In this document: positions 8,760-48,561 of the stretch, piece by piece
Numbering within the stretch: position 1 is the stretch's first letter
Layout: every line of letters starts with the position of its first letter
Origin: Patescibacteria group bacterium
Lineage (GTDB): Bacteria > Patescibacteriota > Patescibacteriia > UBA2591 > JAQUPP01
Direction: 5' to 3'
NCBI GenBank assembly: GCA_041649955.1
Contig: JBAZMD010000001.1
Coordinates: 68,079 to 132,078 of the forward strand
Length of the DNA stretch: 64,000 nt
Made by a program: the position numbers and the translations under genes
The notes under the pieces: generated by a model
The model's database searches: none
The model's input: the letters and a program-made list of their open reading frames with translations, nothing else
What the model was told of the DNA's origin: nothing

Positions 8760-10340
8760 TTATTCTGATTCATTTTCATCAATAATAGAACCATCCGGAA
8801 AAGTTTCGGTTGTTGGAATTTCTATCACATTTTCCCATTTATAACCCAATTTTTCAAAAATTTCTCCTGATTTAAAAACTCTTTTACTGCCATTTTCAAT
8901 CAAATAAACCATAGCACTATCCGGATATTTTATTAAAGTTCCATTTGGCCTTGACGAAACCGGAGCGATAAATTGAAAACTATTGATCAACATTTTGAAA
9001 GTAGTCTTAAAATTCGCTTCTTTTTCAGTGCCGACATTATATGAAATCACATAAACATTTTCGCCCTTGGAAATATAAATCGTCAAATGATCCGAACTCC
9101 AAAGAGCCGGCTGATTATTGACAATAACGGCAGTTAATGAACTTTTTTCAGTTGTCGGCGATTGTTTTGAATACCAATCAATCAAAGACAATTGATCGGG
9201 ATTCTTTTCTGCAGTCGCGCTGAAAAATTCTCCGGTATTAGTAATCACTAAAACCTCTTCATTATTGGTTTCCGGAATTGCTCTGGTTATCCATGAAGAC
9301 GGATAGAAAAAACTGTAAGAAAAAGTGGAATTAGTATAAATATTGATCAAACCGGCGGCTGAAAGCTTATTCTCGCCCGTTTGCAGCGGATCGGTTAAAT
9401 TGGCTATTTCTTGGCCGTCGCTAATGCCATCGCCGTCAGTATCAGGATTATTAACGCTGGTGCGATAGATAGTTTCTTCCGTGTCGGTCAAACTGTCTTG
9501 ATCCGAATCAACAGTGGAAGAAATTTGCGGCGCTATTTGAAATATTTCCGTTTGAGGAATTGCCTTGCTTTTTGAAACAATTAAAGCAAAAGTGTCGGAC
9601 GGCAAAAGATCCAATTGAGCAATAATTAAATTATTTTCCACGTCTTGCGTACTTGATAAAGGAGTCCAAATATTATCTTTCAAATAGCCCAAAACAATAT
9701 CATTTTCCCAATTGCTTTCAACAATTTTATTATGATAAAAAGCTCTTAAGGTTGCTGATTTTTGCAAAATAAGATTAGTGGATTGAATTTTATAAGTCCC
9801 TCCAATAACCTTGTAATCATTGAATGTATTTTCATTGGTTATCGGCTCCGAGATTAATTCAATTTTTAAATTCTGGTCAACGGCTCCGGCAGGCAGATAA
9901 AATTCCAGCCAAGAAACAGTTTCGCCCGTTTGATCTTTTATCTCGGCTTTCAAAGTTTGTTCAATTGAAACATTCGCAGCCGGAACAGAGGGAGAATTAT
10001 TTTCTTCGGGCTGAGTAATGGCAGGAATTTGAGTGACAACCGGAATATTAGGATGGTAATTGGTGATCCAAAAATAAAACGCAAAACCTCCGCCGACAAT
10101 AATAATTAGAAGGCATAAAATTAAAATAAGAGATTTATTTTTATCTTTTTTGGACAATTTACGCTGAGCTTTGCGAAATTTCTCCGGCATCACATAAATC
10201 ATTTCTCCAGTGGTTCCATATTGAGTCACTTCTTCAATAATTTCCTTTTTAGCCGCAGGAGGAGGATTAGCAAAAATATCCTGCACCGCAGAAGCGTCTG
10301 TTTTTTGAGATTCCGGTTGTATAGGTGTTTCTTCTGGCAT
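8760..10340 (-). CDS. Membrane-anchored surface protein with a TSP3-type Asp-rich repeat and a C-terminal ~55-aa module shared with the 2308-aa protein
   Basis: 526 aa with a single TM (LILILCLLIIIVGGGFAFYFWI) and the repeats DSDQDSLTDTEE and [12 protein letters not shown]. The C-terminus RPNGTLIKYPDSAMVYLIENGSKRVFKS...GYKW resembles the tail of ORF 30882-37808. Confidence 0.7.
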   Translation of the reverse strand: MPEETPIQPESQKTDASAVQDIFANPPPAAKKEIIEEVTQYGTTGEMIYVMPEKFRKAQRKLSKKDKNKSLILILCLLIIIVGGGFAFYFWITNYHPNIPVVTQIPAITQPEENNSPSVPAANVSIEQTLKAEIKDQTGETVSWLEFYLPAGAVDQNLKIELISEPITNENTFNDYKVIGGTYKIQSTNLILQKSATLRAFYHNKIVESNWENDIVLGYLKDNIWTPLSSTQDVENNLIIAQLDLLPSDTFALIVSKSKAIPQTEIFQIAPQISSTVDSDQDSLTDTEETIYRTSVNNPDTDGDGISDGQEIANLTDPLQTGENKLSAAGLINIYTNSTFSYSFFYPSSWITRAIPETNNEEVLVITNTGEFFSATAEKNPDQLSLIDWYSKQSPTTEKSSLTAVIVNNQPALWSSDHLTIYISKGENVYVISYNVGTEKEANFKTTFKMLINSFQFIAPVSSRPNGTLIKYPDSAMVYLIENGSKRVFKSGEIFEKLGYKWENVIEIPTTETFPDGSIIDENESE

Positions 10341-10351
10341 AGTAAAATTAT

Positions 10352-10951
10352 TTACTTTAATTTATCAATTTCTTTTTGTAAATTCAATAACTTAGCATTT
10401 GGATTGGAATTATTCGGATCGGTATTATTTTTAATTTCTTGTCCGTCACTGATGCCGTCACCGTCAGTATCAGGTTTTAAAGGATTTGTTAAATAAACCT
10501 TAACTTCTTCTCTATCAGAAAGACCATCGTTGTCAGTATCAGATTTATTTTTATCAGTGCCCAAGGTAGTTTCTTCTTCATCAGTTAAACCGTCTCCATC
10601 AGCGTCAGGAGCCATTTCAATCGGTTTGGTAATAATTATCGGTGATATCTTGTTATCTTCCGGATTTATTTGAGGCTGACCGGTTTGATTGAGTTTTTTT
10701 ATTTTCGCCTGTTCTGTTAAACTTTTGATTTTAGGCAAAGCGTAATAATAAACTCCCGCTCCGACAATCGCAATAATGATAATAATCAAAATAACGCGAA
10801 TAAAATTTTTATTGATTTTCTTGCGATTTGATGATGAATTGCCGGAATTTTTATTTTCATCAGAAATAAAATTTTTACGTTCAACGTCTTCAAAAATATC
10901 TTCCACTTGGTTAGCGGAGTTTGGATTTAAATTTTTTATTTCGTCTGGCAT
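10352..10951 (-). CDS. Membrane-anchored protein with three TSP3-type calcium-binding-like repeats
   Basis: 199 aa with a single TM ([20 protein letters not shown]). Repeats are [24 protein letters not shown] and [12 protein letters not shown]. Confidence 0.7.
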
Positions 10952-10986: not shown

Positions 10987-13900
10987 TTATTGCAAAACAC
11001 TGCCGCCTATTTCACTAGTCCATGGATCATTTTTTGTTTTCTCAATAATCGGACCATAAACAGAATTAAAACATTTAAAAGCATCTGAATTATAGCCGAA
11101 TAATTTTTGCTGGCATTTAGTCGTCCAGCCACATAAATAGTGAGTTTCACAAGTATTTCTATCCATACCACCGCAATTTGCCTGCCATTTTGAAGAATCT
11201 GTTTCAAAATTCAGATATAAACGATAATCGTCTTCACTTATGGACACATACTGATAGACAGATGAGCCAACCGGACATTCATATTTACTTGTACTTTGAT
11301 TATAACAGGTTCCGCCGCATTGGCTAGTATCGCTGCAACCGGCGCAATAACCGCTTGTCGGGTTTGAAAATTGATTAGTCGGATCATTCGGCATACTGGA
11401 AATAAATTGCCCTTGAGGATTTTTCCAAGAAGGCCATTTGGAAACGGTCATTCCTTTTATAAAACTGCCTGATTCAAGTTTCGGATAATAACCATTAGTT
11501 GATTTATAATCTGTCAGTTTTTGGTTTATTGTTTTTAAATCATAAAGACGGAATAAATCTCGCTGAATTTTTTGCTGTTCATCAGTAGTTTTATTTGTGT
11601 TAAATTGCCAATTATTAACCAATTGATTAAAAATATCAATTGTCTCAGATTTAGCGCTATCAGAATACGAGATAAGATAAATTAAACCCTCAATTTTTCC
11701 GTCATCTTTAACATTTGTTGCCCCCACATAAACCGTTCTCCCCTCTTTTACCGCTTGATAACCATTAACAATAAACGATGTCGGTGAACCGGGGTTTGGC
11801 ACATTTTTCTTATACCATTCAAAAGGAGTAAGATAATCTGGATTTTTCAAAACCTTAAGACCGATCACGTCATTGTTAGCATTATTGGTAAAAAGAAATT
11901 CTTTAACTACATTTGATTTCGTAGTATCGGTTGCAATAAGAGATGGTAAGGATGGAAAATTTTGATATTCAGTCGGTTGCGCTCCTTTTTCCAATTGAAT
12001 ATTAGTCATATGGATTACATCTTCTTTTGTGGAAGCAGTCCATAATATCCCAACCTTAATTGCGGTATCATCAGGTCCGGTGGTAAAAGTATTGGAAATT
12101 TTAGCCAAAGCGCCAGTAGAAATCGCGTTTCCGGGCCAAACTAAATTATAATATGAAGAAGCAATCTTACTTTGAACATAAATGTATGCCAAAGACGTCC
12201 CTGTTCTATTTACTAACATGGATAGAGTATACTGCGTATTTGGAGAAACCTTAATCCAATTTGTTGATATTACTCCGGGAGTGCTTTTGGATTGCTTATT
12301 CGTGACTTTTAAAACATTATAATTAGATTGTTTAACAGTTGAAATGTCTACGCTTTGATTTTTACTCCAACCATTTGTGCCATCAAACATAGCACCGTTA
12401 AAAACTAAATTTTTCTCTAAATTTCCACGGCAATATTGCAATCTAAAATGAGTTTCTGAATCTGTAAATCCCCCTTGTATCCACGGAAATTCACAAAGAA
12501 AAACTTTGGCTTGTGCCATGGCTGAAAAGCTTTTACCAATATCTGATTTGGAAGTATCGGCTGTAATCTTAGCTGTAACTTTAATCTGCGAATCACCGTT
12601 TTGATTTTGGGCCGTGGCCGTTTGCGATGAATTAGCGCTGATTGGAACTAAAACCACGTTGGGTTTTGAAGAATCCCAAGACCAAGTCCAATTATAATCA
12701 GAAACGCCGTGAATCTCGGCTCCTTTATTATCAAGAGCTTTTGTTGAAAATTTTATTGTTGAATCTTTCTTATAAAACTCCACTGATGCTGGAGAAATAA
12801 TTTTTGGTTTTCCCGGATCTGTATTTACAGGATTAACTTTTTCATCCACTTCTTCGGCGGTTATTTCCACTTTGCTTAATTTGCAAATATCCGCACCAGT
12901 GGTAAATGTCCAAGAATTATTTTCCGCCATCTCAATGCCATATTTGCTTTTTACGATATTTTCTTTACCGGCAATTTCTTCTTTACCGGAAATTTCTACT
13001 TGATAAGTGCAAGCGCCGCTGGCATCTAATAAGCCTAAACCGGAATTTAAATAAACAATGGTTTGTTTTGTGGTATTATTATCAACCGCGGAAATATCCG
13101 CTTTTAAATCATAAATAACTGTTTTTCCCGCTTCAGCTTTTTTCAGAAAAATATTTTTTAAACTATTAAAAAATCTGACAAAAATATTATTTTTCTCCAA
13201 ACTGGCTGTAGCAGGACAATATTTATACAATTTAATTGTATCTGAATTAAGCGTGGATTTGTCCATTAATTGGTCAAAAGTGGCGTAAATTACGGTATTG
13301 CGGCAAACATTACCATTAGGATAACTATTCACTACTGTCGGCTGAGTAGCGACGACTAGATGGGAACTGTCGGAAATCGGTTGTTCACCTTTTGAAGTGG
13401 TAATTGTCGTGCTCACTGTAATATCTGTTTCACCTAAATTTTTACCTTTAACAGTCGCACTCTCGTTTGGCGTACCGACAAATTCAGCGATGTTCGGCGG
13501 ATCAGCGTCACCGTCGTCCCATGACCAAGAATATTTGCTTGATTCCAAATAATTACAATTTGAAGTATAAATTTGAGGAGTGTAAACTTTGGTTTCATTT
13601 TGTAAAATTTGGTTTGTACCCGCGGAATCAAGACAAATTTTATTCAAAGGACAATCATCATTATTCGCGATAAACATCCAAGTATAATCATCTCCTTGAA
13701 CGCCATTTTTGTCTCCATCCAGTTCCAATCCGAATTTATCTTTTATGCCGTTTGATCCGCTTTTTAAAATTATGCGGTAAATTTTATTTTTTTCCAAAGA
13801 AGCAGCAGGTTTGAAATAAAAGCCATTTTTTTCAATCGTAAAAGTGCCGAGAGCTATATTACTTGTCTCATTGTCCGGACATCCAGAATTATTAAAATCA

Positions 13901-16900
13901 CTAGTGCCGCATTTTTGAATTATTATATTTTTATTGGCAGCAGTATCAGTATTATTGGTGGTATCAATCACTACTTCCCGATTAAATCGAGCCCTGATTT
14001 GCGCTTGAGTGCAAGCGTCAGTAGATTGACTGGATGGCGAAGGTGATTGATCTCCCAATTTGCATTCACTGCAACCAGATTCTTCAGATACTTGCGGCGG
14101 TCCGCCCGGAGAAACTGTCAATAAAGCGCAAGTGCGCGGCTCTGTATAAGTACATACATTATCGCCCGTCGAAGCCATAATTAAAGATTGACCAAAATCT
14201 TTGGGTTTAGCAATTGTAGATAAACCGCTTGATGGTGAAATTGTGGCAATATTTGTTTTTGCGGAAGTCCAATTAAAACTATCCACGCAAATCTGGCGGC
14301 CATTTGAATCTAAAGCTGAAGCACCAAATGTCGGTGTTTGATTTAATCCATTAACTGTTAAATCAGTCGGAATAACTTTTATTGTTGTGATACGACATGT
14401 TCCATCTCCGGTAGTAAAATCCCAAGCAGTATCGTTCATAGAAACTCCCATTTTACTTATAGCTCCGCTTCCATATATTCCTCCCTTGACCCATATTTTA
14501 TAAGTAGAATTTGGATTTAGTTGACAGCCGGAAGGATAAAAATCAGTAGTTGTTTCTTTCTTAATATTATCATCAACGCTGGTGATTCTGCCCTTAACTT
14601 GATGAGGAGCTAAAATATCTTCTTCGGTTAAAGCTTTATTATAAATACGAACTTCGTCAATAACGCCTCTAAAATTAGAGTAATAGCATGATCCAAATTT
14701 TGGATCTGGACAGAGAGAATCTGCGTAAGATTGCCGGCCGATTACCAAATTGCCGGCATTGACTAAAGATTTTTCTCCAAATGTTTTTAGTTGAATACCG
14801 TCTAATTTTCCATTAACATAAATTTTAAGATTTTCTCCGTCATAAGTTGCTGTAATGCGATAAAAAACATCTTCTGATAACCATGTTGAACCGCGTACAT
14901 TAGTAAGATCAGGATGTATTCCAGTTCCCACTACGAAACCCGGCTGCCATTGACCGGTGTTTGGGCCTTTTCTATATAAATCCAATACATAGTTATTTCT
15001 TGCCGTCATACCCTCATCCCCTTTGGCTAAAATAACCAGTCTGCCCTTGTCAGGATCAGTAGAAGTGTCTTTTTTAATTTTTATAAAAACATCTAATGTT
15101 AATTTTTGCAAATCTAAAGAAGAACTATCAGGAATAGTTATATAATCACCATCGTCGCCTAGAGCACCATCAAATTCTAAAGCTTTTCCAAATTTTCCAT
15201 TAACCCAAGCTGCTCCGGAAATTGTTCCGTCATTTAACCCTTTCGCATCTTCAACGATTAATCCTGCTCCTTTGTTAAAATGCCAAAGCGCTACCATTCC
15301 TTCTTCAAAATTAGTTTCATAACCCGGATCAACATCAGAAGACAATAATTTGATATTATCATTTAAAGAATTATGATCCATTAAATCATCGAAGGTCATT
15401 GAAACTGACGCATTTTTACAAACATTAATTTCTCCATCAGCGGGTGATTTGCTTGCATTTATTATAATTGGTTGAGGATAACAGCATTTATTCGGATCTA
15501 AGATACCGCAACCGGCGCCGGTACCGCATTGAGCATCATTTTTGCAACCGCAACAGAGACCGCGAGGATTATCCTCTGGACCCTTACAATTACCTTGATT
15601 GGCTAAACAAGTTAAACCGACAGCGCAAGAATTCTGTTGTTTAGGATTGCAGCAACAACGACAAGTGTCAGCACCGCTTAAACATTTATAAGGCGCTGAA
15701 CAACTGCCTGAATTATTCGGACAAGATACATCTTGGCATTTATCTCCGGGTTTTGGCGCTCTATGTAAAACTTCAAAAGGCAAACTATTGCTTGTCCCGC
15801 TGGAATTTTTTACCACCACATTACCCTTTTGAGCGTCAGCCGGCACAAAGACTTCTATAATTTGCGTATCAGACCAATTTGCATCTAAAAAATCAGCAAC
15901 TACTTGATTATAAAAAATTATTTTGCTGCCGTCATTTTTTGTACCGAATCTTAAACCATTAAAACTGACTTTTGTTTCGCTTGGATCGCCTTTTGGATAA
16001 CCGCTGGAAGGATTAATTGACAAAAGACACGGACCGGATGATTCACTATTATCATTAACCAAAAATTTATCCCAACTCACAGTTTCTGATTTGCTGGCAT
16101 CTCCATCATAAGTAATCCCCACTTTAACGCCCAATGAATCCGAAATATCAGTTGCCGGATCGCCAAAAACCGCAGGAATAACCGTGGTAATAAAATCCGG
16201 ACCGGATGATTCTACGATTGCATTTATTGGCCCATCTTCTCCATTTGGTCGGGACTCAGCAGGCGGAATAACCGGATATTTATCATCAAATTGAAATTTA
16301 GTTATAGTCGCCGGACGATTAGTGGTGCCAGTAAAACAGCGGCCAAAAACAGTTACGCAACTTTTTCGTGAACCGGAATCGGGCGTTACTTTATAAATTA
16401 CCGGCGAACAAGCGCATTTGGTCAAATCAGTGGTTGTAAAATCCCAATCTTTGCCGAGTTTATTTTGATCAACATCCATTATTAAATCAGTAGTTGCGCT
16501 GATATAATAAGAAGTGCCGACAGTCAAATTATTATTTAATTTAATTTCAAAAACCTTAAATTGAGTGGAAATATTTTCAATATCAGCGTCAATAACTTTA
16601 ATTTTTCCAATCGTATTTTTGCCATCTTCGGTCGTGACGGATGCTTCAATTTCTTTCGGTTTAATAGAGCCTTGGAAAACAATATTTTTTCCGATTTTAC
16701 CCTGAATCGTTACCGTATTATCGTACATACTGGTGGCGAAGCTGACGCCAATCGGTTCGTCCGGACAAACATTTTTATCCTTTGGCCAATAATCGCTGAT
16801 CCCCGGAACAATATCATTTGTTTCAAATTTCCAAGATTGCGGCGCAGCCATTGGATTACCGCATAAATCTTTAACATTGGCCACGGTGATTTTATACCAA

Positions 16901-18165
16901 GTAAACGGATCAAGTAAATTAGGATTGCTTAAAGAAACAAAAAATCCTTGATATTTATCTTTAACAATTAATATTCCATTAATTGCCGTGCCGGATTCAG
17001 CATCTCGAGAAGCTAATTTTTCTATTGTAAAACTTGTGGAAATTGGATGTCCGTCAGCATCAGCCACTGTATCAAAATCTATACTTTCGTTAAAATTCAA
17101 ATCAATAATCGGCGCTCGAGAAACCCATTGATTTGGCTTTGCCGAATCAATAGTCGGATAAGTTTTATTCAAATAAGGCGCTTCTGTGTCTACGATATTA
17201 TTAGTTTCAAAATCCCAAATAACAGTATCAGCGTTTTTTGAGCAATGATATTTTGGATTAAATCCGTTACTGCAGCCATATAAAGGAAGACTGGGAATAT
17301 AAGTATCTTTAATTGATTTTGGGACAATAACATTATATTTAGTATCCGAGTCCCATATAGTTTTAGGAGTAAATAAAACCGAACTGCCTGAAATTTTCCA
17401 AGTTCCTTCAATAGCTTTTTTATCCGCATCAGTGGCTTTAACAACTTTCAAAGTTTCGTCGGTTATTACCGCGTTTACCTCATTAGAATTTAAATTATGA
17501 TTAAAAACTGGTTTTATCTTGCTGCAGCGATAAACTTTCGCATTTGGATTTTCAACTATATTCTCTGTACTGAAAGCAGCTTCGCCGCTCTTTAAAAGTA
17601 AAGACATTGAATCGGAAGAAAAATAACAAGTATCTTCTGCTGGAATAGTACATTCGCAATTCTCATCAAATTTCATGCCTATACCATTGCCGCAGCAAGA
17701 ATCCGGCTTGCAGCACTTGCTTCCTACGCAATAAGTTGAAGGTTCGGTCACCTCCGAAAGTTTACTCATAATAAAGCTGGCAATGGCGTAAGCTAAAACA
17801 ATAATTAAAATGCCGATAATGCCGGCAATCATCAATTTTTTGGCTCCGGCAATTTTAGTTTCATCTCCACCCGAAGTCATCCATCTAAAACCGCCCATAA
17901 TTATAATAACCGCCGCCGCCAATCCGAGCACGCCTAAAACAATTCTCATTATATTACCCATGGCAGAAGGGAGGTCAGTGTTTCCATAAGTCGCATGAGT
18001 GCGAAAATTTTCCAAACCGTTATTCATTTCTTGCGCATTGGTTAAAGCCGGATTTAAAACAAAAAATAAAAATCCGGATGCCATCAATAAACATAAAAAA
18101 CCTAAAAATATATTTTTTTTAAATTGTTTTTTTTCCGCCATCCGGCGAATTATTTCAATTTTCAT
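10987..18165 (-). CDS. Giant (2392 aa) surface protein with an N-terminal TrbC/VirB2-type pilin-like two-TM anchor, then Ig-like, IPT/TIG, Cys-rich, LamG and CBM-like domains
   Basis: One uninterrupted ORF. Residues 1-140 carry a TM, a loop and a second TM with GGFRWMTSGGDETKIAGAKKLMIAGIIGILIIVLAYAI. Later come SbsA/Big-type repeats (...WYKITVANVKDLCGNPM), IPT-like segments, Cys-rich blocks (CRCCCNPKQQNSCAVGLTC), LamG-like (LWHFNKGAG...ALEFDG...VRIYNKAL), Big_2-like repeats, a CBM4/9-like block and a Cys-rich C-terminus. Confidence 0.85.
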   Translation of the reverse strand: MKIEIIRRMAEKKQFKKNIFLGFLCLLMASGFLFFVLNPALTNAQEMNNGLENFRTHATYGNTDLPSAMGNIMRIVLGVLGLAAAVIIIMGGFRWMTSGGDETKIAGAKKLMIAGIIGILIIVLAYAIASFIMSKLSEVTEPSTYCVGSKCCKPDSCCGNGIGMKFDENCECTIPAEDTCYFSSDSMSLLLKSGEAAFSTENIVENPNAKVYRCSKIKPVFNHNLNSNEVNAVITDETLKVVKATDADKKAIEGTWKISGSSVLFTPKTIWDSDTKYNVIVPKSIKDTYIPSLPLYGCSNGFNPKYHCSKNADTVIWDFETNNIVDTEAPYLNKTYPTIDSAKPNQWVSRAPIIDLNFNESIDFDTVADADGHPISTSFTIEKLASRDAESGTAINGILIVKDKYQGFFVSLSNPNLLDPFTWYKITVANVKDLCGNPMAAPQSWKFETNDIVPGISDYWPKDKNVCPDEPIGVSFATSMYDNTVTIQGKIGKNIVFQGSIKPKEIEASVTTEDGKNTIGKIKVIDADIENISTQFKVFEIKLNNNLTVGTSYYISATTDLIMDVDQNKLGKDWDFTTTDLTKCACSPVIYKVTPDSGSRKSCVTVFGRCFTGTTNRPATITKFQFDDKYPVIPPAESRPNGEDGPINAIVESSGPDFITTVIPAVFGDPATDISDSLGVKVGITYDGDASKSETVSWDKFLVNDNSESSGPCLLSINPSSGYPKGDPSETKVSFNGLRFGTKNDGSKIIFYNQVVADFLDANWSDTQIIEVFVPADAQKGNVVVKNSSGTSNSLPFEVLHRAPKPGDKCQDVSCPNNSGSCSAPYKCLSGADTCRCCCNPKQQNSCAVGLTCLANQGNCKGPEDNPRGLCCGCKNDAQCGTGAGCGILDPNKCCYPQPIIINASKSPADGEINVCKNASVSMTFDDLMDHNSLNDNIKLLSSDVDPGYETNFEEGMVALWHFNKGAGLIVEDAKGLNDGTISGAAWVNGKFGKALEFDGALGDDGDYITIPDSSSLDLQKLTLDVFIKIKKDTSTDPDKGRLVILAKGDEGMTARNNYVLDLYRKGPNTGQWQPGFVVGTGIHPDLTNVRGSTWLSEDVFYRITATYDGENLKIYVNGKLDGIQLKTFGEKSLVNAGNLVIGRQSYADSLCPDPKFGSCYYSNFRGVIDEVRIYNKALTEEDILAPHQVKGRITSVDDNIKKETTTDFYPSGCQLNPNSTYKIWVKGGIYGSGAISKMGVSMNDTAWDFTTGDGTCRITTIKVIPTDLTVNGLNQTPTFGASALDSNGRQICVDSFNWTSAKTNIATISPSSGLSTIAKPKDFGQSLIMASTGDNVCTYTEPRTCALLTVSPGGPPQVSEESGCSECKLGDQSPSPSSQSTDACTQAQIRARFNREVVIDTTNNTDTAANKNIIIQKCGTSDFNNSGCPDNETSNIALGTFTIEKNGFYFKPAASLEKNKIYRIILKSGSNGIKDKFGLELDGDKNGVQGDDYTWMFIANNDDCPLNKICLDSAGTNQILQNETKVYTPQIYTSNCNYLESSKYSWSWDDGDADPPNIAEFVGTPNESATVKGKNLGETDITVSTTITTSKGEQPISDSSHLVVATQPTVVNSYPNGNVCRNTVIYATFDQLMDKSTLNSDTIKLYKYCPATASLEKNNIFVRFFNSLKNIFLKKAEAGKTVIYDLKADISAVDNNTTKQTIVYLNSGLGLLDASGACTYQVEISGKEEIAGKENIVKSKYGIEMAENNSWTFTTGADICKLSKVEITAEEVDEKVNPVNTDPGKPKIISPASVEFYKKDSTIKFSTKALDNKGAEIHGVSDYNWTWSWDSSKPNVVLVPISANSSQTATAQNQNGDSQIKVTAKITADTSKSDIGKSFSAMAQAKVFLCEFPWIQGGFTDSETHFRLQYCRGNLEKNLVFNGAMFDGTNGWSKNQSVDISTVKQSNYNVLKVTNKQSKSTPGVISTNWIKVSPNTQYTLSMLVNRTGTSLAYIYVQSKIASSYYNLVWPGNAISTGALAKISNTFTTGPDDTAIKVGILWTASTKEDVIHMTNIQLEKGAQPTEYQNFPSLPSLIATDTTKSNVVKEFLFTNNANNDVIGLKVLKNPDYLTPFEWYKKNVPNPGSPTSFIVNGYQAVKEGRTVYVGATNVKDDGKIEGLIYLISYSDSAKSETIDIFNQLVNNWQFNTNKTTDEQQKIQRDLFRLYDLKTINQKLTDYKSTNGYYPKLESGSFIKGMTVSKWPSWKNPQGQFISSMPNDPTNQFSNPTSGYCAGCSDTSQCGGTCYNQSTSKYECPVGSSVYQYVSISEDDYRLYLNFETDSSKWQANCGGMDRNTCETHYLCGWTTKCQQKLFGYNSDAFKCFNSVYGPIIEKTKNDPWTSEIGGSVLQ

Positions 18166-18187: not shown

Positions 18188-18643
18188 TTAGATATTATTT
18201 AATTGTTCTTTGACTATTTGGCTGACTTGATTGCCGTCCGCTTTGCCCTTGGTTTGTTTCGCCACCAAGCCCATTACTTTGCCGAAATCCGAAGGACCGT
18301 TGGCATTGATTTCTTTAATAACATTTAAAACTATTTCTTTCACTTGATCGCCCGATAATTGTTCGGGCATATATTTAAAAAGTATTTCCAATTCTTTTTT
18401 TTCTTTGGCGGCTAATTCCGGCCGATTCCCCTTTTCATATAATTCTATCGCCTCTTTGCGTTTTTTTATTTCTCCGCCGACAATATCAACAGCCAGTTCA
18501 TCGGTTAATTCTTGTTTCTTGGGTCTTAATTCAATAGCTTTATACGCCAAGGCGGATTTTAACATACGCAAAACAGCCTTCGTGTCTTCCTCTCCTTCAC
18601 GCAAGGCTTGTTTAAAATCTTTTTCAATACGTTCGAGCAACAT
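18188..18643 (-). CDS. yqeY: GatB/YqeY domain protein
   Basis: 151 aa with a YqeY-like pattern (LRMLKSAL, GEIKKRKEAIELYEKGNRPELAAKEKKELEILFKYMPEQLS, GKADGNQVSQIVKEQL). Confidence 0.85.
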   Translation of the reverse strand: MLLERIEKDFKQALREGEEDTKAVLRMLKSALAYKAIELRPKKQELTDELAVDIVGGEIKKRKEAIELYEKGNRPELAAKEKKELEILFKYMPEQLSGDQVKEIVLNVIKEINANGPSDFGKVMGLVAKQTKGKADGNQVSQIVKEQLNNI

Positions 18644-18815: not shown

Positions 18816-19034
18816 TTACTTAATTTTACCAAGTTTTCTTAAATATTCCATTTTCTCGCGAGACGATTTTCTGCACAAAGCGCTTGCTCTGCGAAGAAGC
18901 TTGCTTTGCGGTTTAACATAAAATTGGCCTTTTTTGGCAAGGTCAAGCACGCCGCTTCTTTTAATGCGTTCGCTGAATCTTCTTAAAAAAATATTTAAGG
19001 ATTCGTTTGGTTTTCTTTTAAGTTCAATACTCAT
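18816..19034 (-). CDS. rpsU: 30S ribosomal protein S21
   Basis: 72 aa and basic, with an S21-like sequence (NESLNIFLRRFSERIKRSGVL...RRASALCRK). Confidence 0.9.
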   Translation of the reverse strand: MSIELKRKPNESLNIFLRRFSERIKRSGVLDLAKKGQFYVKPQSKLLRRASALCRKSSREKMEYLRKLGKIK

Positions 19035-30881: not shown

Positions 30882-33800
30882 TTATTTCGCGGCTAAGAAT
30901 TTCGGCGTGACTAAATTCTCGGCAAAATCTGAAATTGTTCCGCCGTCAGAATAAGTTTCAGCCTTAGAAATAGTCATTACCGGCACTTTGCTGTAACCAT
31001 TGTTGGTTAAAGCTTTGGCGGATAATTTATATTTCTTGCCGTTCTGAATCAGATAAATCTGAGAAGTTCCCGTGTATTTAACCAATGTTCCATTAGGATG
31101 TTTAGTCGTGGAATCAATCGTATCGCCTAAAGGATAATTGAATTTGGATAATAAATCATCAGGCACCCAAGTCACCAATTTCCATTTCGGATCATTGAAA
31201 AGTTTCTGATAAATCGCTGAAGATTTAACCGGTCTCAATTTGCCGTCAGAAACCATGAATACTGCCGAAGCGCTTAAACCGTGAAGCGATGTAGTCTTGC
31301 CTCTGAATAATGAACCGTCGCGGAATGTCATTGCTACGCCTTCAGAATATTTCGCAAATTCTTCAGAAGTAACCTTCTTGACTGTTGAGAAATTGGATGG
31401 ATAACCCCAAGAGAGATAAACATTAAGATGCGGGAAAACGTGCGCCTTGCCGTCCAAAATCATATAAACCGCGCCTGGTTGAGCAGTACAAGTCGGACAA
31501 ATAACCAAATCTCTATTTTTGAGATTATAAGTTATAACTTCTGCTGTTTCTTCTGATTCAGAAATAATTATTGCTGAAATTATTGAAGAGAGATTAAAAG
31601 TCTTATCTCTGAAACGGATATAAACCACTTTTTCTCCCTTACCAACTGGTAGTAACCAAGAACGAGTAGCTTGATACGGTTCCCAATTAATACCGACAAA
31701 ATCAATCGTATTACTAATCATCATTTCCGCGGCATCAGTAGCAGTAATGTTTAAAGTAACATTTCTGGAAGTAGTTTTCGCGGCACCACTATTTATCTTT
31801 AAGGATAAATCTTTTGGACCAAGATTACCTGCATTGCCACCACCTCCTGAACTGCCACTCATTGGGGTCGAATCTCCGCCAGCAGTAACAAACTTTCCTC
31901 CGGTAATACCGCCAGGTGTAAAATGGTTTGTGGTAACAATTATAACATTATTAGTTGCATCGCGAACCACTGATTTATAATTTTCCCAAGTGTTTGTGGT
32001 GTCATCAAAATATTTTGGCGTAATATCAGCTTCAGTATATCCATAATCTGTAATTAAATCCGGATCATAAGGGAATGTAATCTTTACGTCATTATCAAAT
32101 TGAGTGATTTCTTGACCAGTAGAGTCCTTAGCCGTGAAATCATAGTTAACGCCAAGCGGTTTATCTTTAGCATCCGGTTTCACTGATACCGTAGTTTGAT
32201 TTTCATCACCAACAGTCGGCGTAATAGTTACGGTAACTGTGCCACTGCTGGCTAAAGCTCCGGCTGGAATTTCAAGCGTCAGACCATTTGTAAGTTCAAT
32301 AGTTTTACTGTCTGAAGCGTTGAAAGTCGTAGTTTTAGCTTCAGGAACGGCAAGACCTGTGGTAACAAGAGTTAAATTCTTAGTTTGAGCGCCTGCTACG
32401 GTTATAACTTCAGTCGCAGCGCTTTCATAAAGGACTCCATCAATTTTGGCCGTGGCCTTAACATACCATGTTTCACCGGACTTAACTTTTAAAGTATAAG
32501 TTCCGTCAGAAGCCATTGTACCGGTTCCCTTATCCTCAGACCAAGCTTGTATCATTGCTTGTTTTCTAACGCTGTCTAAAGTAACCTCACCGGTGATAGT
32601 GGCATCTGATAAACTGAATTGAAGATCCTTACCTGTTACATTGGAATCGCCAACCGTCACACTGAGTAATGGCGGGTTAATCAAATCTCTCGCATCCCAA
32701 GGAGGAATACCGGCACCAATTTTGAAAGTACCACTGGTAACATTTAAAGTATAAGTGCCGTCATTTCCGGTAAAAGTACCAACACCCAAACCGCCCGGAC
32801 CCTTAAAATCATTTTTGGTCGTTTCATCACCAAAGTCAGCATAGACCCAAACTCCACTCATACCAACATCATCCGGATCCGTGATTGTACCGCTGATTGT
32901 TTTATCAAGTTTTTTAAGTTGGAAATTACGAGTAGTTGTACTATCGGCAATAACGGTTGATTTTACGTCTTCGGCTACTATTTTGTATTTATCATTATCA
33001 TCTCCAAAATTCATCATCGGATCAATAAAAGCGTCAACGTACCAACTGCCTGCTGAAACTTTTAATGAATATTTATCATTAACACTGCTTGGAGCAAATT
33101 CTGTTTGCGACCAGCCGCCATTTTCTTTATCACCATTGATAAAAGCGCGAACTCCTGTCACAACCGTATCTGTTCCTGCAGTATAAGAACTATCGCTATT
33201 AGTATCAAGATAAAATTTACCTTCAATCGTAGCATTATTCGGTGCCACCACTAAATCAATTTCTTTACATCCGGTTGTTTCGTCAGTACAAGTATCGCTT
33301 TCACCAACAGTAACAGTTTTAGTTACGGTTAAAGTATATTTAGAACCCGGAGGCGTATTTAAACCTAATTCATAACTGCCGAGCGGAACTTTAATTTCAG
33401 TATAACCATTAGCTAATCCTCCGCCGGCAAAACCACCTTTATCCATACCTGCTCCCATTGCTCCGCCGCCACCGCTGCCGCCACCTACAGCTGTTCCACC
33501 ACTACCTGCATCGCCGCTTCCACCTGCCATCATTTTCGGATCACCGAAATCAATAAAATCATTTACTGTCGGATCCGTATCTTTAACCCAAACTCCACCC
33601 CAAATATCGGAAACACGATTACCGTCAGCATCCACTACATTTACTTTAAGCAGACCATCGGCTACCTTTAATAAAAAGTCATTATTATCAGAAGTTTGAT
33701 TGGCGGTTATTGTTACTTGTTGCGGACCACCTTGATAAATATATTGAGTTGACATTGGCATAATCATTACGCCCCAATTTCCTTCACTGACAGTTAAATC

Positions 33801-36800
33801 AAATCTGCCGGTATTAGAATCTGTTTGTGTATTAGCCCAGCCCGGTCCATTCATTTGCCAAGCATTAACCATCACACTGCCAATTGCATTACCGGCCGAA
33901 TCTGTAACCGTTCCTTTAATATGAGCATTCTTTGCTGTTAAAATAAGTGTGCCTGCGTCAGTTGTTTGTTCAGAAATAGCTTTGATTTTAACCGGAGTGG
34001 AACCGCCATAACTCTGACCTTGTTCGCCCCAGTTTGGATTAGCCACCAAATCATAAGTACCAGCTGGAACTTTAAAAGTAAAACGTCCATCAGAATCAGT
34101 ATTGGCACCATTGCCACCACCCATCATACCGCCGCTATTGGCCATTACCCAAGAATTGGCAATTGCCGTAGCACCGGTTGGATCTTTAACTAAACCTGTA
34201 ATAATAGCATTGGCCACTTGAACTTCAAAATCCAAACCAGCATCAAGTATAGTAGCGCCTCCCGGACAATTTCCCACTGTACCGCGGCATTCCGTGCTGC
34301 CATCTTCGGTAAAAGTAGTTCTCTTTGGAGATTCATTATAAACCCAATCAGGTTGACCCATGCTCCAATCAGGATTTACACTTAACCACCAGCCGCCGCC
34401 GGCAAGTTTTAAAGTATATTCACCACTTGAATTTGTTAATGTTTCAAAATGTCCACCTCCCATATCGCGATTAGCTTGAACGCGGGCATTAGCGACTAAT
34501 GCACCGCTGCCCTTTTTAGTCACTGTACCGGTTAAAGTTTTTGTTGGGACAGTTAAGGTAATTAAATTATTTGCCTGAGCCACATTGGCCACTTTAACTG
34601 TGCCTACGTCATCAGCAACATCAACGGTTAATCCGCTTGGTTGAATCCAAGCTTTTTCACCGCCCCAAGGCAAATTGATTTCCATGGATAATCCGGTGGC
34701 ATTGGTTAAACCGCCGATTCGGAAATAACCTTGATCATCAGTTGAAGCACCACCCTGATTTTGCCACATTTGATCATGAATCATAATCCAAGACCATTGG
34801 ACAGGTTGATCATCCGCAGTTCCGGCAACTTCATCCGCACCCGGATTCATTACTCTTCCGGTAACTTGCGGCGTACCAAGTATGAGTTTACCGCCGGTTC
34901 CATAAGTCACACCTAAATCTAAATTAGAAGTTCCGGCAGCTACGGCAGAGGAAATTGTAATATTAGAATATTTTTTTGTTGAATAATTACGATAAACAGC
35001 TTGTTCTTCAGGCGTCCCCCAACGTGGAGCTTCAATTTCTAAAGCATAAGTTCCTGCTGTCACACCACCAAAAGAGAATTGACCGTTCTGATTAGTGTTT
35101 GTGCCATACCAACCACCCGTAGTACCGCCTTGCATTGGTCCTTCAATATGGAAATTAATCCAAGCATTAGCCACAGTTGTAGTAGTATTTGGAATAACAA
35201 CCGTACCGCTAATATTCGGAGTGCTTAAAATTATATTTTTGGTTCTGCTTGATTGAGAACTGGTAACTGTAACATTCTGAACAAGTTTTCTCCCGCAAGT
35301 AATATTTCCGCAACCATTCCAAGGATTTGCTTCCACTTCATAAGTACCAATAGTCACACCGCCAATGGCATAATTTCCATTAGCATCTGTTTGTGACCAT
35401 TGAGAACCGGACATTGAACCTTGTGATCGCATATTAATACCAACATTAGTTGCACCGATATCAGGATAACCCACCGGATCATCGCATTCAGCTTGAGTCA
35501 CAGTTGAATTGTCGTCATGTTTCGGTTTGCAAACACGACCGGTTAAACCATTAACTGTCGGGTCGCTTAACAAAACAAGTAAACTATTATTAGCAATTGT
35601 CAAAGCAGTACCCGGATCTGATACCTCGGTAATAGTAGTTCCGGCAACACTTACTACCATGCCTTGCGGCGCAGCATAAAGACTGCCGTATTGAGTATTG
35701 ACATTAAAATTCCAGCTGCCCGTAGGAACATTTAAACTAAATGTTCCATCACTTTGAGCACTGGCGCCATAACAACTACCGGCTGATTGATAAGGACAAA
35801 AATCAATCCAAATTCCGCTTTGTCCGGTTGTACCGGTTGGATCTTTAACTACACCAGTAACATTGGGTGCTGATAAAGTAAATGCGTCATCATCAACGCT
35901 ATCAAGAGTGTCAGCTTGATCTTTTAAATCATTAGAAGTAGTTGAAGTAATGGAAACTGAAAAATTACCGCTGGCACAAGCACTGCCGCTCGCCGGTTGA
36001 ATTCGAAGATTATAAGTACCAAGTGCCACGCCACCAAGAGAAAAATTACCACTATCATCAGTATTTACACCATACCAAGAACCATCTTTATCCATATTTA
36101 TCCAAGCGACGGTTGTTACACCACCGCATTTTACTTTTCCAAAAACATTTGGCAAAGCAAAAGTTTTATTTCCCAAATCAGTAATTTGTCCATCCGTAAC
36201 ATCAATGGCAAATTCAGCAGTTCTTGTTCTTGGATAACTTCTAAAGTCGCCGCTGTATGGCGGCTCAATTTCTAAAATATAATGAGTACTGTCTGTCACT
36301 CCGCCAAAATAAACTATGCCATCAGCATCGGTCTGTGCCCATTGATTGTAAGACCAATCCATAGTATGAAGACCAATATTGGCATAAGGCACTGGCAAAC
36401 CAGGCTGAGGATTACTTGCCGTAGCAGTATCACCTAAAGTACCAGGAGCCTTAATCGTTACTTTAACATTTTGAGCGGATAAATTGATATTAATGCCGGT
36501 TGCAGTTTGACCTGAAGTTAAACATTGAGAAGTTCTAACGCTTTTATATTGTAAAACTCTGTCTTGATAATCTTTGGGTCTGGCTTCAATTTCATAACAT
36601 TGGCTGCTGGTATCATTTGGAACATAAAGTTTCCATGTTCCGTTTGGACCGGTTGTTGTTCTTTGCTCATAGTCCCAAGTATAAGGACGAGCAACCACTT
36701 CTACGCCTTCCAATAATGTTGCGCCACTGGGAGATTTAACCGTACCGGAAAGAGTGGCTGTTCTAAAAGCTTGGGTGGCTAGTGTTGCCACTGAACCCAC

Positions 36801-37808
36801 CGTAGCTGTTTGACTGCTTAACTTGGAGGGCGCCACATAAGTCGCGCCGGCCGGGGTGCTGAATTGTATATTATAACTTCCGGTCGCACTTAATAATAAA
36901 GCATATTTGCCATTGGAATGAGTTTCCCCAAGCACGACATTTCCCATTTGTCCGGGCGTAAAAGATTCAACCTGGACTCTATCTATGTCACCGGCCGTAT
37001 CTGAGGTAAGACTACCTATAAATATGCCTTGCGTGCTATTCCAAATTATAAATGGTCGTGAATCTGAAACACGACGCGTATTCAAATCACTAATTATTAT
37101 ATCTACGCGGCCGTTTAATCCGGTTGGAATTGTAGCCGTAAGTTCAGTAGCTCCGGCAGTTGCAGGCGTGGATGTTACACTTCCTCCGTTAAAATTCCAA
37201 TATATTTCTGTTGCGTCAGTTGAGGTGGAATAATTAGAACCGGTAATCGTTACTGTATCGCCGACATTGCCGCACGGATAACCATTGCAAAGATCAGACT
37301 CAGTAGTATTGGTTATATAATTGATAATCGGATCAATAGAAGCGCTAACAGTATTGTTGGCAGTAAAATCTTCTATAGTTTGAGTTCCTGCTAAATTTTT
37401 AATATCTCCGGCTGTCATCTGCCAAGTTTGTCCTTCGCTTAATTTTAAATTTTTTAAACCGTAAATTCTTAAACGATAATCATTCTCGCCCGCCTGAATA
37501 CTTTGAGTTGACATATCATAAGGACTGAATCGACTTAATGTTCTGTCTGTTAATCCCGCTCCTGTTTCAAAAATAAAATTACGCAAATCTGTCGCGTAAT
37601 TGGTTGCACTTCCTGCTTCGGTTGTTGAAGATGGGGTTGTTTCTGCGGAAAATTGTCCGTTGAATGTAATTTCCGCTGAAGTTGTCGAGACCGTAATATC
37701 GGTCACGGCTATTGGTGCTAATGCACTCACTGATGTGGACAGCCCCATTGACCACAACATGGTCGTGGCTGTCACAAAAATTGAAAAAAACTTTTTTGTG
37801 TTGTTCAT
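30882..37808 (-). CDS. Giant (2308 aa) secreted surface protein made of a dozen or more prealbumin/CarboxypepD_reg-like beta-sandwich repeats, Gly-rich linkers and three C-terminal ~55-65-aa modules
   Basis: Signal peptide MNNTKKFFSIFVTATTMLWSMGLSTSVSALA. Recurrent units such as ITGLVKDPTGATAIANSWVMA...TDSDGRFTFKVPAGTYDLVANP. Gly tracts (GGSGGGGAMGAG, SGSSGGGGNAG). C-terminus HPNGTLVKYTGTSQIYLIQNGKKYKLS... Confidence 0.85.
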   Translation of the reverse strand: MNNTKKFFSIFVTATTMLWSMGLSTSVSALAPIAVTDITVSTTSAEITFNGQFSAETTPSSTTEAGSATNYATDLRNFIFETGAGLTDRTLSRFSPYDMSTQSIQAGENDYRLRIYGLKNLKLSEGQTWQMTAGDIKNLAGTQTIEDFTANNTVSASIDPIINYITNTTESDLCNGYPCGNVGDTVTITGSNYSTSTDATEIYWNFNGGSVTSTPATAGATELTATIPTGLNGRVDIIISDLNTRRVSDSRPFIIWNSTQGIFIGSLTSDTAGDIDRVQVESFTPGQMGNVVLGETHSNGKYALLLSATGSYNIQFSTPAGATYVAPSKLSSQTATVGSVATLATQAFRTATLSGTVKSPSGATLLEGVEVVARPYTWDYEQRTTTGPNGTWKLYVPNDTSSQCYEIEARPKDYQDRVLQYKSVRTSQCLTSGQTATGININLSAQNVKVTIKAPGTLGDTATASNPQPGLPVPYANIGLHTMDWSYNQWAQTDADGIVYFGGVTDSTHYILEIEPPYSGDFRSYPRTRTAEFAIDVTDGQITDLGNKTFALPNVFGKVKCGGVTTVAWINMDKDGSWYGVNTDDSGNFSLGGVALGTYNLRIQPASGSACASGNFSVSITSTTSNDLKDQADTLDSVDDDAFTLSAPNVTGVVKDPTGTTGQSGIWIDFCPYQSAGSCYGASAQSDGTFSLNVPTGSWNFNVNTQYGSLYAAPQGMVVSVAGTTITEVSDPGTALTIANNSLLVLLSDPTVNGLTGRVCKPKHDDNSTVTQAECDDPVGYPDIGATNVGINMRSQGSMSGSQWSQTDANGNYAIGGVTIGTYEVEANPWNGCGNITCGRKLVQNVTVTSSQSSRTKNIILSTPNISGTVVIPNTTTTVANAWINFHIEGPMQGGTTGGWYGTNTNQNGQFSFGGVTAGTYALEIEAPRWGTPEEQAVYRNYSTKKYSNITISSAVAAGTSNLDLGVTYGTGGKLILGTPQVTGRVMNPGADEVAGTADDQPVQWSWIMIHDQMWQNQGGASTDDQGYFRIGGLTNATGLSMEINLPWGGEKAWIQPSGLTVDVADDVGTVKVANVAQANNLITLTVPTKTLTGTVTKKGSGALVANARVQANRDMGGGHFETLTNSSGEYTLKLAGGGWWLSVNPDWSMGQPDWVYNESPKRTTFTEDGSTECRGTVGNCPGGATILDAGLDFEVQVANAIITGLVKDPTGATAIANSWVMANSGGMMGGGNGANTDSDGRFTFKVPAGTYDLVANPNWGEQGQSYGGSTPVKIKAISEQTTDAGTLILTAKNAHIKGTVTDSAGNAIGSVMVNAWQMNGPGWANTQTDSNTGRFDLTVSEGNWGVMIMPMSTQYIYQGGPQQVTITANQTSDNNDFLLKVADGLLKVNVVDADGNRVSDIWGGVWVKDTDPTVNDFIDFGDPKMMAGGSGDAGSGGTAVGGGSGGGGAMGAGMDKGGFAGGGLANGYTEIKVPLGSYELGLNTPPGSKYTLTVTKTVTVGESDTCTDETTGCKEIDLVVAPNNATIEGKFYLDTNSDSSYTAGTDTVVTGVRAFINGDKENGGWSQTEFAPSSVNDKYSLKVSAGSWYVDAFIDPMMNFGDDNDKYKIVAEDVKSTVIADSTTTRNFQLKKLDKTISGTITDPDDVGMSGVWVYADFGDETTKNDFKGPGGLGVGTFTGNDGTYTLNVTSGTFKIGAGIPPWDARDLINPPLLSVTVGDSNVTGKDLQFSLSDATITGEVTLDSVRKQAMIQAWSEDKGTGTMASDGTYTLKVKSGETWYVKATAKIDGVLYESAATEVITVAGAQTKNLTLVTTGLAVPEAKTTTFNASDSKTIELTNGLTLEIPAGALASSGTVTVTITPTVGDENQTTVSVKPDAKDKPLGVNYDFTAKDSTGQEITQFDNDVKITFPYDPDLITDYGYTEADITPKYFDDTTNTWENYKSVVRDATNNVIIVTTNHFTPGGITGGKFVTAGGDSTPMSGSSGGGGNAGNLGPKDLSLKINSGAAKTTSRNVTLNITATDAAEMMISNTIDFVGINWEPYQATRSWLLPVGKGEKVVYIRFRDKTFNLSSIISAIIISESEETAEVITYNLKNRDLVICPTCTAQPGAVYMILDGKAHVFPHLNVYLSWGYPSNFSTVKKVTSEEFAKYSEGVAMTFRDGSLFRGKTTSLHGLSASAVFMVSDGKLRPVKSSAIYQKLFNDPKWKLVTWVPDDLLSKFNYPLGDTIDSTTKHPNGTLVKYTGTSQIYLIQNGKKYKLSAKALTNNGYSKVPVMTISKAETYSDGGTISDFAENLVTPKFLAAK

Positions 37809-48210: not shown

Positions 48211-48561
48211 CTAATTGTCCCGTCCGTATCCGCCTCTGCTTCCACCGCCGTATCCACCGCGGCTTCCGCCACCACCACCAAATCCTCTTCCACCACCGGT
48301 TCTTGGTCTTTCTTCTCTTGGTCTAGCTTCGCTGACCTTAAGATTGCGGCCGTCGATTGGTTGGTTGTTGAACATTTCAATGGCTTTTGCGGCTTCGTCT
48401 TCTGTGGACATTTCCACAAAACCGAATCCTTTGCTTCTACCGGAATATTTATCGGTAATAATACTCGCTGAGACAACTGTTCCGGCCTGGCCGAAAGTTT
48501 CTTTCAATTGATCGTCAGTGAGATTATATGATAAATTTCCGATGTAAAGTTTCTTTTCCAT
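48211..48561 (-). CDS. RRM-type RNA-binding protein with an RGG/GYGG tail
   Basis: 116 aa. RNP2 LYIGNL and RNP1 KGFGFVEM. C-terminus GGGRGFGGGGGSRGGYGGGSRGGYG. Confidence 0.9.
   Translation of the reverse strand: MEKKLYIGNLSYNLTDDQLKETFGQAGTVVSASIITDKYSGRSKGFGFVEMSTEDEAAKAIEMFNNQPIDGRNLKVSEARPREERPRTGGGRGFGGGGGSRGGYGGGSRGGYGRDN

Follow-up and report, generated by a model that had tools for sequence, protein, structure and literature searches.

A widespread Patescibacteria family of giant Ig-repeat and lectin proteins carrying an intact VirB2-like pilin module at the N-terminus

The window analysed here is a 64-kb stretch of contig JBAZMD010000001.1 from a Patescibacteria group bacterium, with a G+C content of 35% and a gene content typical of Patescibacteria housekeeping. 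On its minus strand, a single uninterrupted open reading frame (ORF) with an ATG start and 2392 codons spans positions 10987..18165; the plus-strand frame of this interval is riddled with stops. A sequence-only reading of the window, made without database searches, had described a 2392-amino acid (aa) surface protein with a pilin-type N-terminus here; the ORF is intact at these coordinates, and the strand, which that reading had left out, is added. The product, referred to below as the giant, is identical to NCBI entry MFA5050564.1, which lies on a 137.5-kb contig and bears the title [quoted passage not shown] (MAG, metagenome-assembled genome). The features of the giant and of its neighbouring genes are listed in Table 1.

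Three hydrophobic segments were found in the whole protein, at aa 17–42, 68–97 and 104–139, the loop between the last two being RWMTSGGDETKIAGAKK. They fit the layout proposed in the sequence-only reading, namely a transmembrane segment, a loop and a transmembrane pair with the motif GGFRWMTSGGDETKIAGAKKLMIAGIIGILIIVLAYAI, which is located at aa 91–128. The first segment belongs to a Sec-type signal peptide, in the region of which AlphaFold2 (AF2) predicted a helix (aa 13–42). Signal peptidase most likely cleaves after TNA (aa 44), and A44 and Q45 were invariant or nearly so in two family alignments. For the mature module, AF2 returned a confident two-helix hairpin with a predicted local distance difference test score of ~90. 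The T4SS_pilin family (PF18895; T4SS, type IV secretion system) was matched at aa 67–132, with 28.5 bits for the full protein and 35.9–36.2 bits for the first 180–190 aa, against a Pfam gathering cut-off of 26.6 bits. TrbC/VirB2 (PF04956) remained below its cut-off of 27.9 bits (15.8–19.8 bits, E 1e-3 to 0.016). The earlier assignment to a TrbC/VirB2-type pilin thus holds for the pilin family PF18895 and not for PF04956. A hidden Markov model (HMM) derived from free pilins scored the giant's module at 143 bits, the family-invariant residues G92, M96, G100 and G118 were all present, and no position with ≥80% conservation across the family was lost. A mere signal anchor, which the sequence-only reading had named as a possible refutation, is contradicted by the PF18895 score, by the retention of these positions and by 77% identity to a free pilin described below. 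Judged from these profiles and alignments, the N-terminus is not just any signal anchor but genuinely belongs to the T4SS_pilin family of Patescibacteria. A profile search of the PDB gave no pilin match, and Foldseek returned nothing below E 0.68, a comparison that is uninformative for so simple a fold; for this reason the link to classical VirB2 depends on the profile scores and on the published association of PF18895 with virB4 in genomes (PMC12102498, PMC10633639). In the predicted topology, the hairpin lies in the cytoplasmic membrane with its basic loop on the cytoplasmic side and its two ends outside, so that the ectodomain of ~2250 aa is extracellular even with an uncleaved signal.

Full-length orthologs of the giant with 73%, 61% and 48% identity were found in other assemblies and samples, on independent contigs and with the gene order preserved, and the sequence at the junction of pilin module and ectodomain (...EVT.PSTYCVGS.C...) was kept in the ortholog at locus L007. 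A search with an N-terminal query of 182 aa had returned only small free pilins of 115–173 aa as closest matches, which at first pointed to a chimera or a one-off fusion. That search missed long proteins, even the identical one, and this idea was dropped after a whole-protein search gave the identical protein and 31 fused giants. With a short query, the word-indexed homolog search overlooks long proteins even where they include it at 100% identity, and finding small matches only is no evidence of uniqueness. Among the 32 giants that the whole-protein search returned, 31 carry exactly one pilin module, at aa ~1–140 as located with the free-pilin HMM, and the sole giant without it is an archaeal LamG protein. 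The 31 pilin-fused giants are 1812–3752 aa long and belong to Falkowbacteria, Uhrbacteria and other Patescibacteria. A tandem-repeat scan found nothing above background, hence nothing favouring assembly collapse. The fusion is real and conserved, and, as far as these searches tell, pilin-fused giants are a widespread, conserved family and not a curiosity of one genome.

With aa 1–145 as query, an exhaustive phmmer search yielded 26,769 cluster representatives (E≤1e-3). Of the 150 that ranked highest, a sample skewed to kin of a giant's module, 92 have a single module; 68 of them are ≤200 aa long and 23 are proteins of 337–2993 aa with the module at the N-terminus, a proportion (23/92) that is no family-wide estimate. 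The giant, at 2392 aa, lies well outside the stand-alone size of PF18895 pilins (~100–170 aa); size does not define the family, because these 23 of the 92 single-module close relatives exceed 300 aa. PF18895 was matched by all 77 aligned relatives and PF04956 also by 48 of the 77 (E≤0.01, best E 1.3e-8), the latter indicating homology at the family level and not membership of the giant's own sequence. Alignment of 47 giant modules and 94 free pilins gave the shared consensus ...GL..F...GLG.TDLP.IIG.II.IVLG.LGLIAV.III.GGF.WMTSGG.EEKI.KAKK....G.IGL.II..AYAI.SF.I., with a mean top-residue frequency of 0.49 in the giant modules versus 0.50 in the free pilins; the positions with ≥80% conservation were almost the same in both sets. 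In the ortholog P0031, identity by tile was 77% in the pilin tile and 74–79% in the last two tiles, and 31–51% between them. By these measures the fused module is unrelaxed and pilin-like rather than a decayed anchor.

Two further observations concern the same sample. The single-module relatives form a continuous length range from 106 to 2993 aa, and 58 of the best 150 are “poly-pilins”, in which 2–15 tandem transmembrane hairpin modules follow a single signal peptide (for example, P0063 of 1147 aa and P0128 of 1775 aa). Internal signal peptides and X residues are absent from these proteins, which look genuine and not like read-through artefacts.

Related genomes carry four free pilin genes, a1–a4, between a solute-binding-protein gene and glycosyltransferase genes. 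The four array pilins are mutually 29–50% identical, and the modules of the giants are 61–77% identical to a3 and 28–49% identical to a1, a2 and a4. In the form of a3, a pilin unit of this kind also occurs as a separate gene. The module of the giant shares 77% identity with the stand-alone 115/132-aa a3 pilin P0060 (MFA5050809.1), whose NCBI accession is 245 away from that of the giant and which was found in the same ENA metagenome as the DNA of the window; for both reasons, P0060 very probably comes from the same MAG. On the basis of these identities, the module of the giant is the sister paralog of array member a3. No second pilin module was found in any frame of the window. The free pilins stop 5–8 residues past the second helix, exactly where the giants run on.

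The 34 N-terminal residues of the mature protein (QEMNNGLENFRTHATYGNTDLPSAMGNIMRIVLG) are identical in the giant and P0060, including six that vary in the giants and a3 pilins of other genomes. In three putative same-organism pairs of giant and a3 (the pair described here; the pair P0031 and P0002, presumably on one contig, since both records give 640,230 bp as the longest contig; and the pair P0030 and P0003, which co-occur in the same two samples), the first mature residues co-vary (EM/EM, EM/EM and DL/DL), and the helices track the paralog. A scan of contigs for further pairs of giant and free pilin covered four loci and gave no new pair. In this small sample, it looks as though selection keeps the exposed segments of the two paralogs matched, as would be expected if the two packed against each other as subunits or had a partner in common. 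A recent gene conversion between a3 and the giant gene was considered as well and ruled out by the DNA, which is 70% identical overall and has ~13 synonymous differences inside the identical 34-codon stretch.

The array has peculiarities of its own. Pilin a1 (L001:8687-9364 and L004:8262-8984) is 225–240 aa long, has a hairpin flanked on either side by Cys-rich extensions, and resembles a small “modular” pilin. An ORF for a GIY-YIG endonuclease lies between a2 and a3 in the array of one lineage (L004:9495-9761 and L005:2779-3003) and is absent from L001 and L008; more GIY-YIG ORFs are present in the glycosyltransferase cluster of L019.

Most of the modules proposed for the ectodomain in the sequence-only reading were recovered. 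The LamG-like lectin domain and the CBM4/9-like sugar-binding block correspond to Laminin_G_3 and CBM_4_9, and the Cys-rich blocks to 69 Cys residues with clusters at aa ~126–200, 801–925 and 2250–2375. The Ig repeats are Big_5 domains in five stretches, and the labels “SbsA-type” and “Big_2-like” gave no Pfam match at E≤1. The IPT/TIG-like segments are represented by one domain, with a score just under the Pfam cut-off. The Laminin_G_3 tile is missing from most other giants. The only part besides the pilin module that is common to most giants is a distal module of ~270 aa (aa ~2054–2321), which in 33 other giants is either terminal or followed by a further 400–1250 aa. The segment GYYPKLESG, from which a pilin-like globular domain had been proposed, is present at aa 2225 within the second half of this module. 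The globular domain itself found weak support: T2SSG (PF08334) on aa ~2194–2321 scored below threshold (16.1 bits versus a cut-off of 21, E 0.012), 2 of 15 family members matched PF08334 (best E 0.001), and the predicted structure is of low confidence after aa 2230. A C-terminal anchor was not found in the giant, which ends in ...NDPWTSEIGGSVLQ, has no hydrophobic segment past aa 139 and shows no LPXTG sorting signal.

Table 1. Features of the giant pilin-fused protein and its neighbouring genes (positions in the window)
Feature	Residues	Position	Strand	Remarks
Giant pilin-fused surface protein, whole ORF		10987..18165	minus	2392 aa + stop
Sec-type signal peptide (predicted)	1–44	18034..18165	minus	basic n-region, hydrophobic core aa 17–42, ...LTNA/QE (slash, predicted cleavage); hydropathy
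Mature VirB2-like pilin module	45–141	17743..18033	minus	short exposed N-terminal segment, helix 65–96, loop RWMTSGGDETK, helix 102–140
Cys-rich linker directly after second helix	142–185	17611..17742	minus	7 Cys per 50 aa
Big_5 Ig-like, best of five stretches	326–449	16819..17190	minus	PF13205, E 5.4e-31 for protein
IPT/TIG-like domain	712–798	15772..16032	minus	19.8 bits, just below cut-off 20.9
Dense Cys-rich block	~801–925	15391..15765	minus	9–11 Cys per 50 aa
Laminin_G_3 / concanavalin-A-like lectin domain	1005–1184	14614..15153	minus	66.3 bits
CBM_4_9 carbohydrate-binding module	1918–2037	12055..12414	minus	39.1 bits vs cut-off 25.9
Distal module, first half: PsbP/Mog1/LpqN-like alpha/beta domain	~2085–2190	11596..11913	minus	
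Distal module, second half: long helix and Cys-rich beta region, weakly type IV pilin/pseudopilin-head-like	~2194–2321	11203..11586	minus	
Partner 1, 199-aa single-pass membrane protein		10352..10951	minus	three TSP3 calcium-binding repeats
Partner 2, 526-aa single-pass membrane protein		8760..10340	minus	TSP3 repeat and PsbP-like C-terminal domain; PsbP_2 sub-threshold
YqeY gene		18188..18643	minus	left border of conserved block, 22 nucleotides upstream of giant
S21 gene, preceding YqeY		18816..19034		

The giant gene occupies a conserved position. The gene order is histidine kinase, response regulator, Na/Pi-PhoU, S21, YqeY, the giant, a 200-aa TSP3 protein, a 526–530-aa protein, MreC, MreD-like, PBP2 and GreA. 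Synteny at the YqeY border extends to loci L006, L007 and L013–L017, and in the distant lineages L013–L015 the block is bordered by YqeY on one side and by YbeY/FtsA/FtsZ on the other. Partner 1 is 88–89% identical in L006 and L007 and has positional homologs in L013–L015; homologs of partner 2 were present in all loci examined. In close relatives, the two partner genes are 85–89% identical and more conserved than the giant. The C-terminal domain of partner 2 is homologous to the PsbP-like sub-domain of the giant (hhalign probability 94.9%, E 4.5e-8), and this shared domain suggests that the giant and the two partner genes form one functional unit. The block is likely to be co-transcribed, because the intergenic gaps around the giant gene are only 22 and 35 nucleotides and no convincing terminator was seen (the promoter and terminator scans gave nothing above background). 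At two of the distant loci, a mid-size Big_5 protein with an N-terminal pilin-like hairpin is encoded between YqeY and the giant (625 aa at L013:8127-10004 and 697 aa at L014:7874-9967); the L013 copy has a T4SS_pilin Pfam match, and for the L014 copy, which matches Big_5 only, the hairpin was read from the sequence.

Elsewhere in the window, a second giant ORF (30882..37808, minus strand) encodes a protein of 2308 aa that has at least nine CarboxypepD_reg repeats, a signal peptide of the ordinary kind and no pilin module; L006 has a 2314-aa gene with similar domains at the matching upstream position. Three ORFs of ~485 aa (41514..42962, 43946..45397 and 45390..46868, all minus strand) each end in a PEP-utilizers mobile domain. 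Among them lies a 314-aa ORF resembling the N-terminal domain of PPDK (42981..43925, minus strand), an arrangement that is unusual in being split and multiplied. Another ORF (48211..48561, minus strand), overlapped by a spurious 116-aa ORF in another frame, encodes a small RNA-binding protein of the RRM type whose tail is rich in Gly and Arg.

The reading that we favour, albeit tentatively, is that the giant is a modular pilin of the VirB2-like type, which uses the pilin assembly pathway to put an adhesin on display. We prefer it because the module is unrelaxed, because of the partnership with a3, because both ends of the protein are conserved around a variable middle, and because modular type IV pilins provide a precedent. 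According to this scheme, the giant would be inserted by the Sec pathway and cut by signal peptidase after TNA, leaving the two-helix hairpin (aa ~65–140) in the cytoplasmic membrane with the basic loop inside and both ends outside. From the outer C-terminal end, the chain would continue through the Cys-rich knot and an ectodomain of ~2250 aa, built of Ig-like, lectin and carbohydrate-binding modules, to the PsbP-like and pilin-head-like distal module. The hairpin could then enter the assembly pathway of the free pilins, as its unrelaxed family membership and its sisterhood with a3 suggest, and be incorporated at low stoichiometry, most plausibly as the first-in tip subunit of a VirB2-like filament or of a membrane-proximal stub. 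Both termini of the pilin face outward in all solved conjugative pili (bioRxiv 10.64898/2025.12.18.695078), so that a graft at the C-terminus would be geometrically compatible with incorporation, most easily as a tip layer. Such a filament would confront the host cell with a long adhesin that evolves fast and binds sugar, and the two downstream TSP3 membrane proteins would probably act with the giant at the surface.

Several points weigh against this reading. No T4SS gene (VirB4, VirB6, VirD4, PrgI or TrsD) was found in the window or in 10 kb past each end (~84 kb), nor within 10 kb of the giant gene at seven other loci; the VirB4, VirB6 and VirD4 genes sought as company for the pilin therefore did not turn up in this range. 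The gene lies between S21/YqeY and cell-shape or division genes, a position like that of a core envelope gene and not of a T4SS accessory. It is impossible for a load of 2250 aa to be carried at every position of a pilin lattice. The co-variation with a3 comprises three pairs, and two of the pairings are drawn from accession proximity or sample co-occurrence. No PF18895 protein has yet been shown to form a filament, and a FEMS review speaks of the “potential to elaborate conjugative pili” (PMC12857230). The pilin-anchored or pilus-displayed giant adhesin of the sequence-only reading is accordingly borne out in its pilin-family anchor and its conserved fusion, and it is weakened by the lack of a nearby T4SS gene and by the housekeeping neighbourhood.

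The same neighbourhood bears on a second reading, nearly as likely as the modular pilin, in which the hairpin is a static anchor that merely tethers a giant surface fibril (an adhesin or a component associated with the envelope or S-layer) and is never extracted or polymerised, the T4SS being irrelevant. The N-terminal hydrophobic segments are the only membrane attachment of the protein, which has no C-terminal sorting signal; T4SS genes are not near it in any locus examined, and the deep synteny with S21, YqeY and MreC/MreD/PBP2 or FtsA/FtsZ fits a core envelope component. The conserved neighbours, which have a domain in common with the giant, are themselves simple membrane proteins of the single-pass type. 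VirB2-type pilins, moreover, normally rest as a membrane pool (bioRxiv 10.64898/2025.12.18.695078). A mere tether would, however, be expected to drift, yet the full consensus, including the cytoplasmic loop GGF.WMTSGG.E.KI..AKK, is kept at the level of the free pilins, conservation is higher in the pilin module than in the middle of the protein, and the exposed segment of the module tracks one specific free pilin.

It is improbable, by comparison, that the giant is a precursor whose module and ectodomain are parted after export, with the pilin released and the adhesin shed or handed to the wall, or with the module serving as a pro-region for export or targeting. RP4 TrbC, which is trimmed at its C-terminus before cyclisation, would be the analogy. 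The point at which free pilins end and giants continue would suit such a cut, and the junction consists of a short conserved motif followed by the Cys-rich knot. On the other hand, no recognisable cleavage motif and no dedicated peptidase gene were seen in the conserved block, a signal peptidase S26 being nearby in distant loci only; the ectodomain without the hairpin would have no other anchor; and the conserved junction may be a linker only. Finally, an artefactual origin, in which a small pilin gene and an unrelated adhesin gene were merged by misassembly (a chimera, as the sequence-only reading had allowed for), by a frameshift or by the loss of a stop codon, is refuted, the small matches of the N-terminal search notwithstanding, by the recurrence of the fusion in the identical NCBI entry, in syntenic orthologs of independent assemblies and samples and in 31 giants of other lineages, by the conserved junction and by the repeat scan.

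A broader proposal may be considered, which we regard as less likely than not: Patescibacteria VirB2-like pilins would be general carriers for grafted surface functions, a counterpart of modular type IV pilins among conjugative pili, and the three-gene block would be the long-sought host-attachment device of the essential T4SS without relaxase of these epibionts, with the giant as the filament tip that sets the host range. Much of bacterial diversity falls to the Patescibacteria, whose life is apparently spent attached to other cells. In Ca. Southlakia epibionticum, the one species open to genetics, a T4SS-like machine and VirB2-like pilin arrays are essential (PMC10633639). A phylum-wide survey recorded VirB4 in 2417 of 3035 Patescibacteria assemblies and VirB2-like pilins in 1,948 assemblies, of which only 1135 have them close to virB4; it found no adhesin (PMC12102498). 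The giant, in which pilin and adhesin would be united in one polypeptide, could fill that place, and a conserved family of such giants, inherited vertically, with lectin and Ig-repeat domains and with an intact pilin module as the only anchor, is a concrete candidate for host contact.

In the literature, small pilins and their arrays on the one hand and giant Candidate Phyla Radiation (CPR) surface proteins on the other are treated separately, as in the T4SS survey (PMC12102498), the Southlakia genetics (PMC10633639), a 2025 T4SS review, a PrgF preprint, a giant-gene preprint, the Vampirococcus study (PMC8080830) and a Paceibacterales transcriptome. Full-text literature searches found no paper describing a pilin fused to a large ectodomain, in agreement with the earlier remark that no fusion of a VirB2-like pilin to a giant adhesin was known. 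The architecture is visible in public databases, where it is annotated only as “Ig-like domain-containing protein”, and is apparently undescribed. Annotation may have contributed a blind spot: the supplementary table of the survey lists PF18895 matches as “VirB2” without lengths (PMC12102498), and surveys of this kind could count such giants unnoticed.

Compared with the described PF18895 pilins, the N-terminal 141 aa of the giant are alike in score, topology and motif, and its lineage also has the four-gene free array. The described pilins are, however, small, stand-alone and often beside virB4, whereas the giant has an ectodomain of 2250 aa, no T4SS neighbour and a place in a conserved housekeeping block with two genes for TSP3 membrane proteins. 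With classical VirB2, TrbC and TraA, the giant shares a long signal peptide, a pair of hydrophobic helices joined by a short basic loop, and outside termini. Many of its family relatives match PF04956, and the giant itself scores below the PF04956 cut-off. Classical conjugative pilins have ~70–80 residues when mature, and we know of none with a giant C-terminal domain. The role proposed for the giant is similar to that of VirB5, the tip adhesin of Gram-negative T4SSs, which is a separate and unrelated protein.

The closest likeness in design is to the modular type IV pilins, such as Streptococcus sanguinis PilB (vWA) and PilC (lectin), CofB of enterotoxigenic Escherichia coli and GspK of the type II secretion system (PMC8179133, PMC9934059), which combine a carrier with a grafted effector and in which, as in the giant, adhesive modules, including a concanavalin-A-like lectin, are attached C-terminally through a short linker. 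These pilins polymerise via the pilin module and are probably located at the tip (PMC8179133). The analogy is one of design only, since filament and fold are unrelated: the giant has a Sec-exported VirB2-type hairpin and not a class III signal peptide with alpha1, no prepilin-peptidase or G/FTLIE-type motif was recognised on reading its N-terminus, and its Pfam match there is to PF18895 and to no type IV pilin family. Its graft of ~2250 aa is also far larger than the 860 aa of the most extreme multi-domain case cited in PMC8179133. With giant Ig-repeat adhesins (SiiE, the 7651-aa adhesin of Mobiluncus and LPXTG fibrils) and with CPR giants such as those of Vampirococcus (PMC8080830), the protein has in common a string of Ig-like, lectin and carbohydrate-binding domains, a fast-evolving middle and a presumed function in host attachment. 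Anchoring and export set it apart from these adhesins: it has no type I secretion signal, LPXTG motif or C-terminal anchor, and its sole anchor is the N-terminal hairpin of the pilin family.

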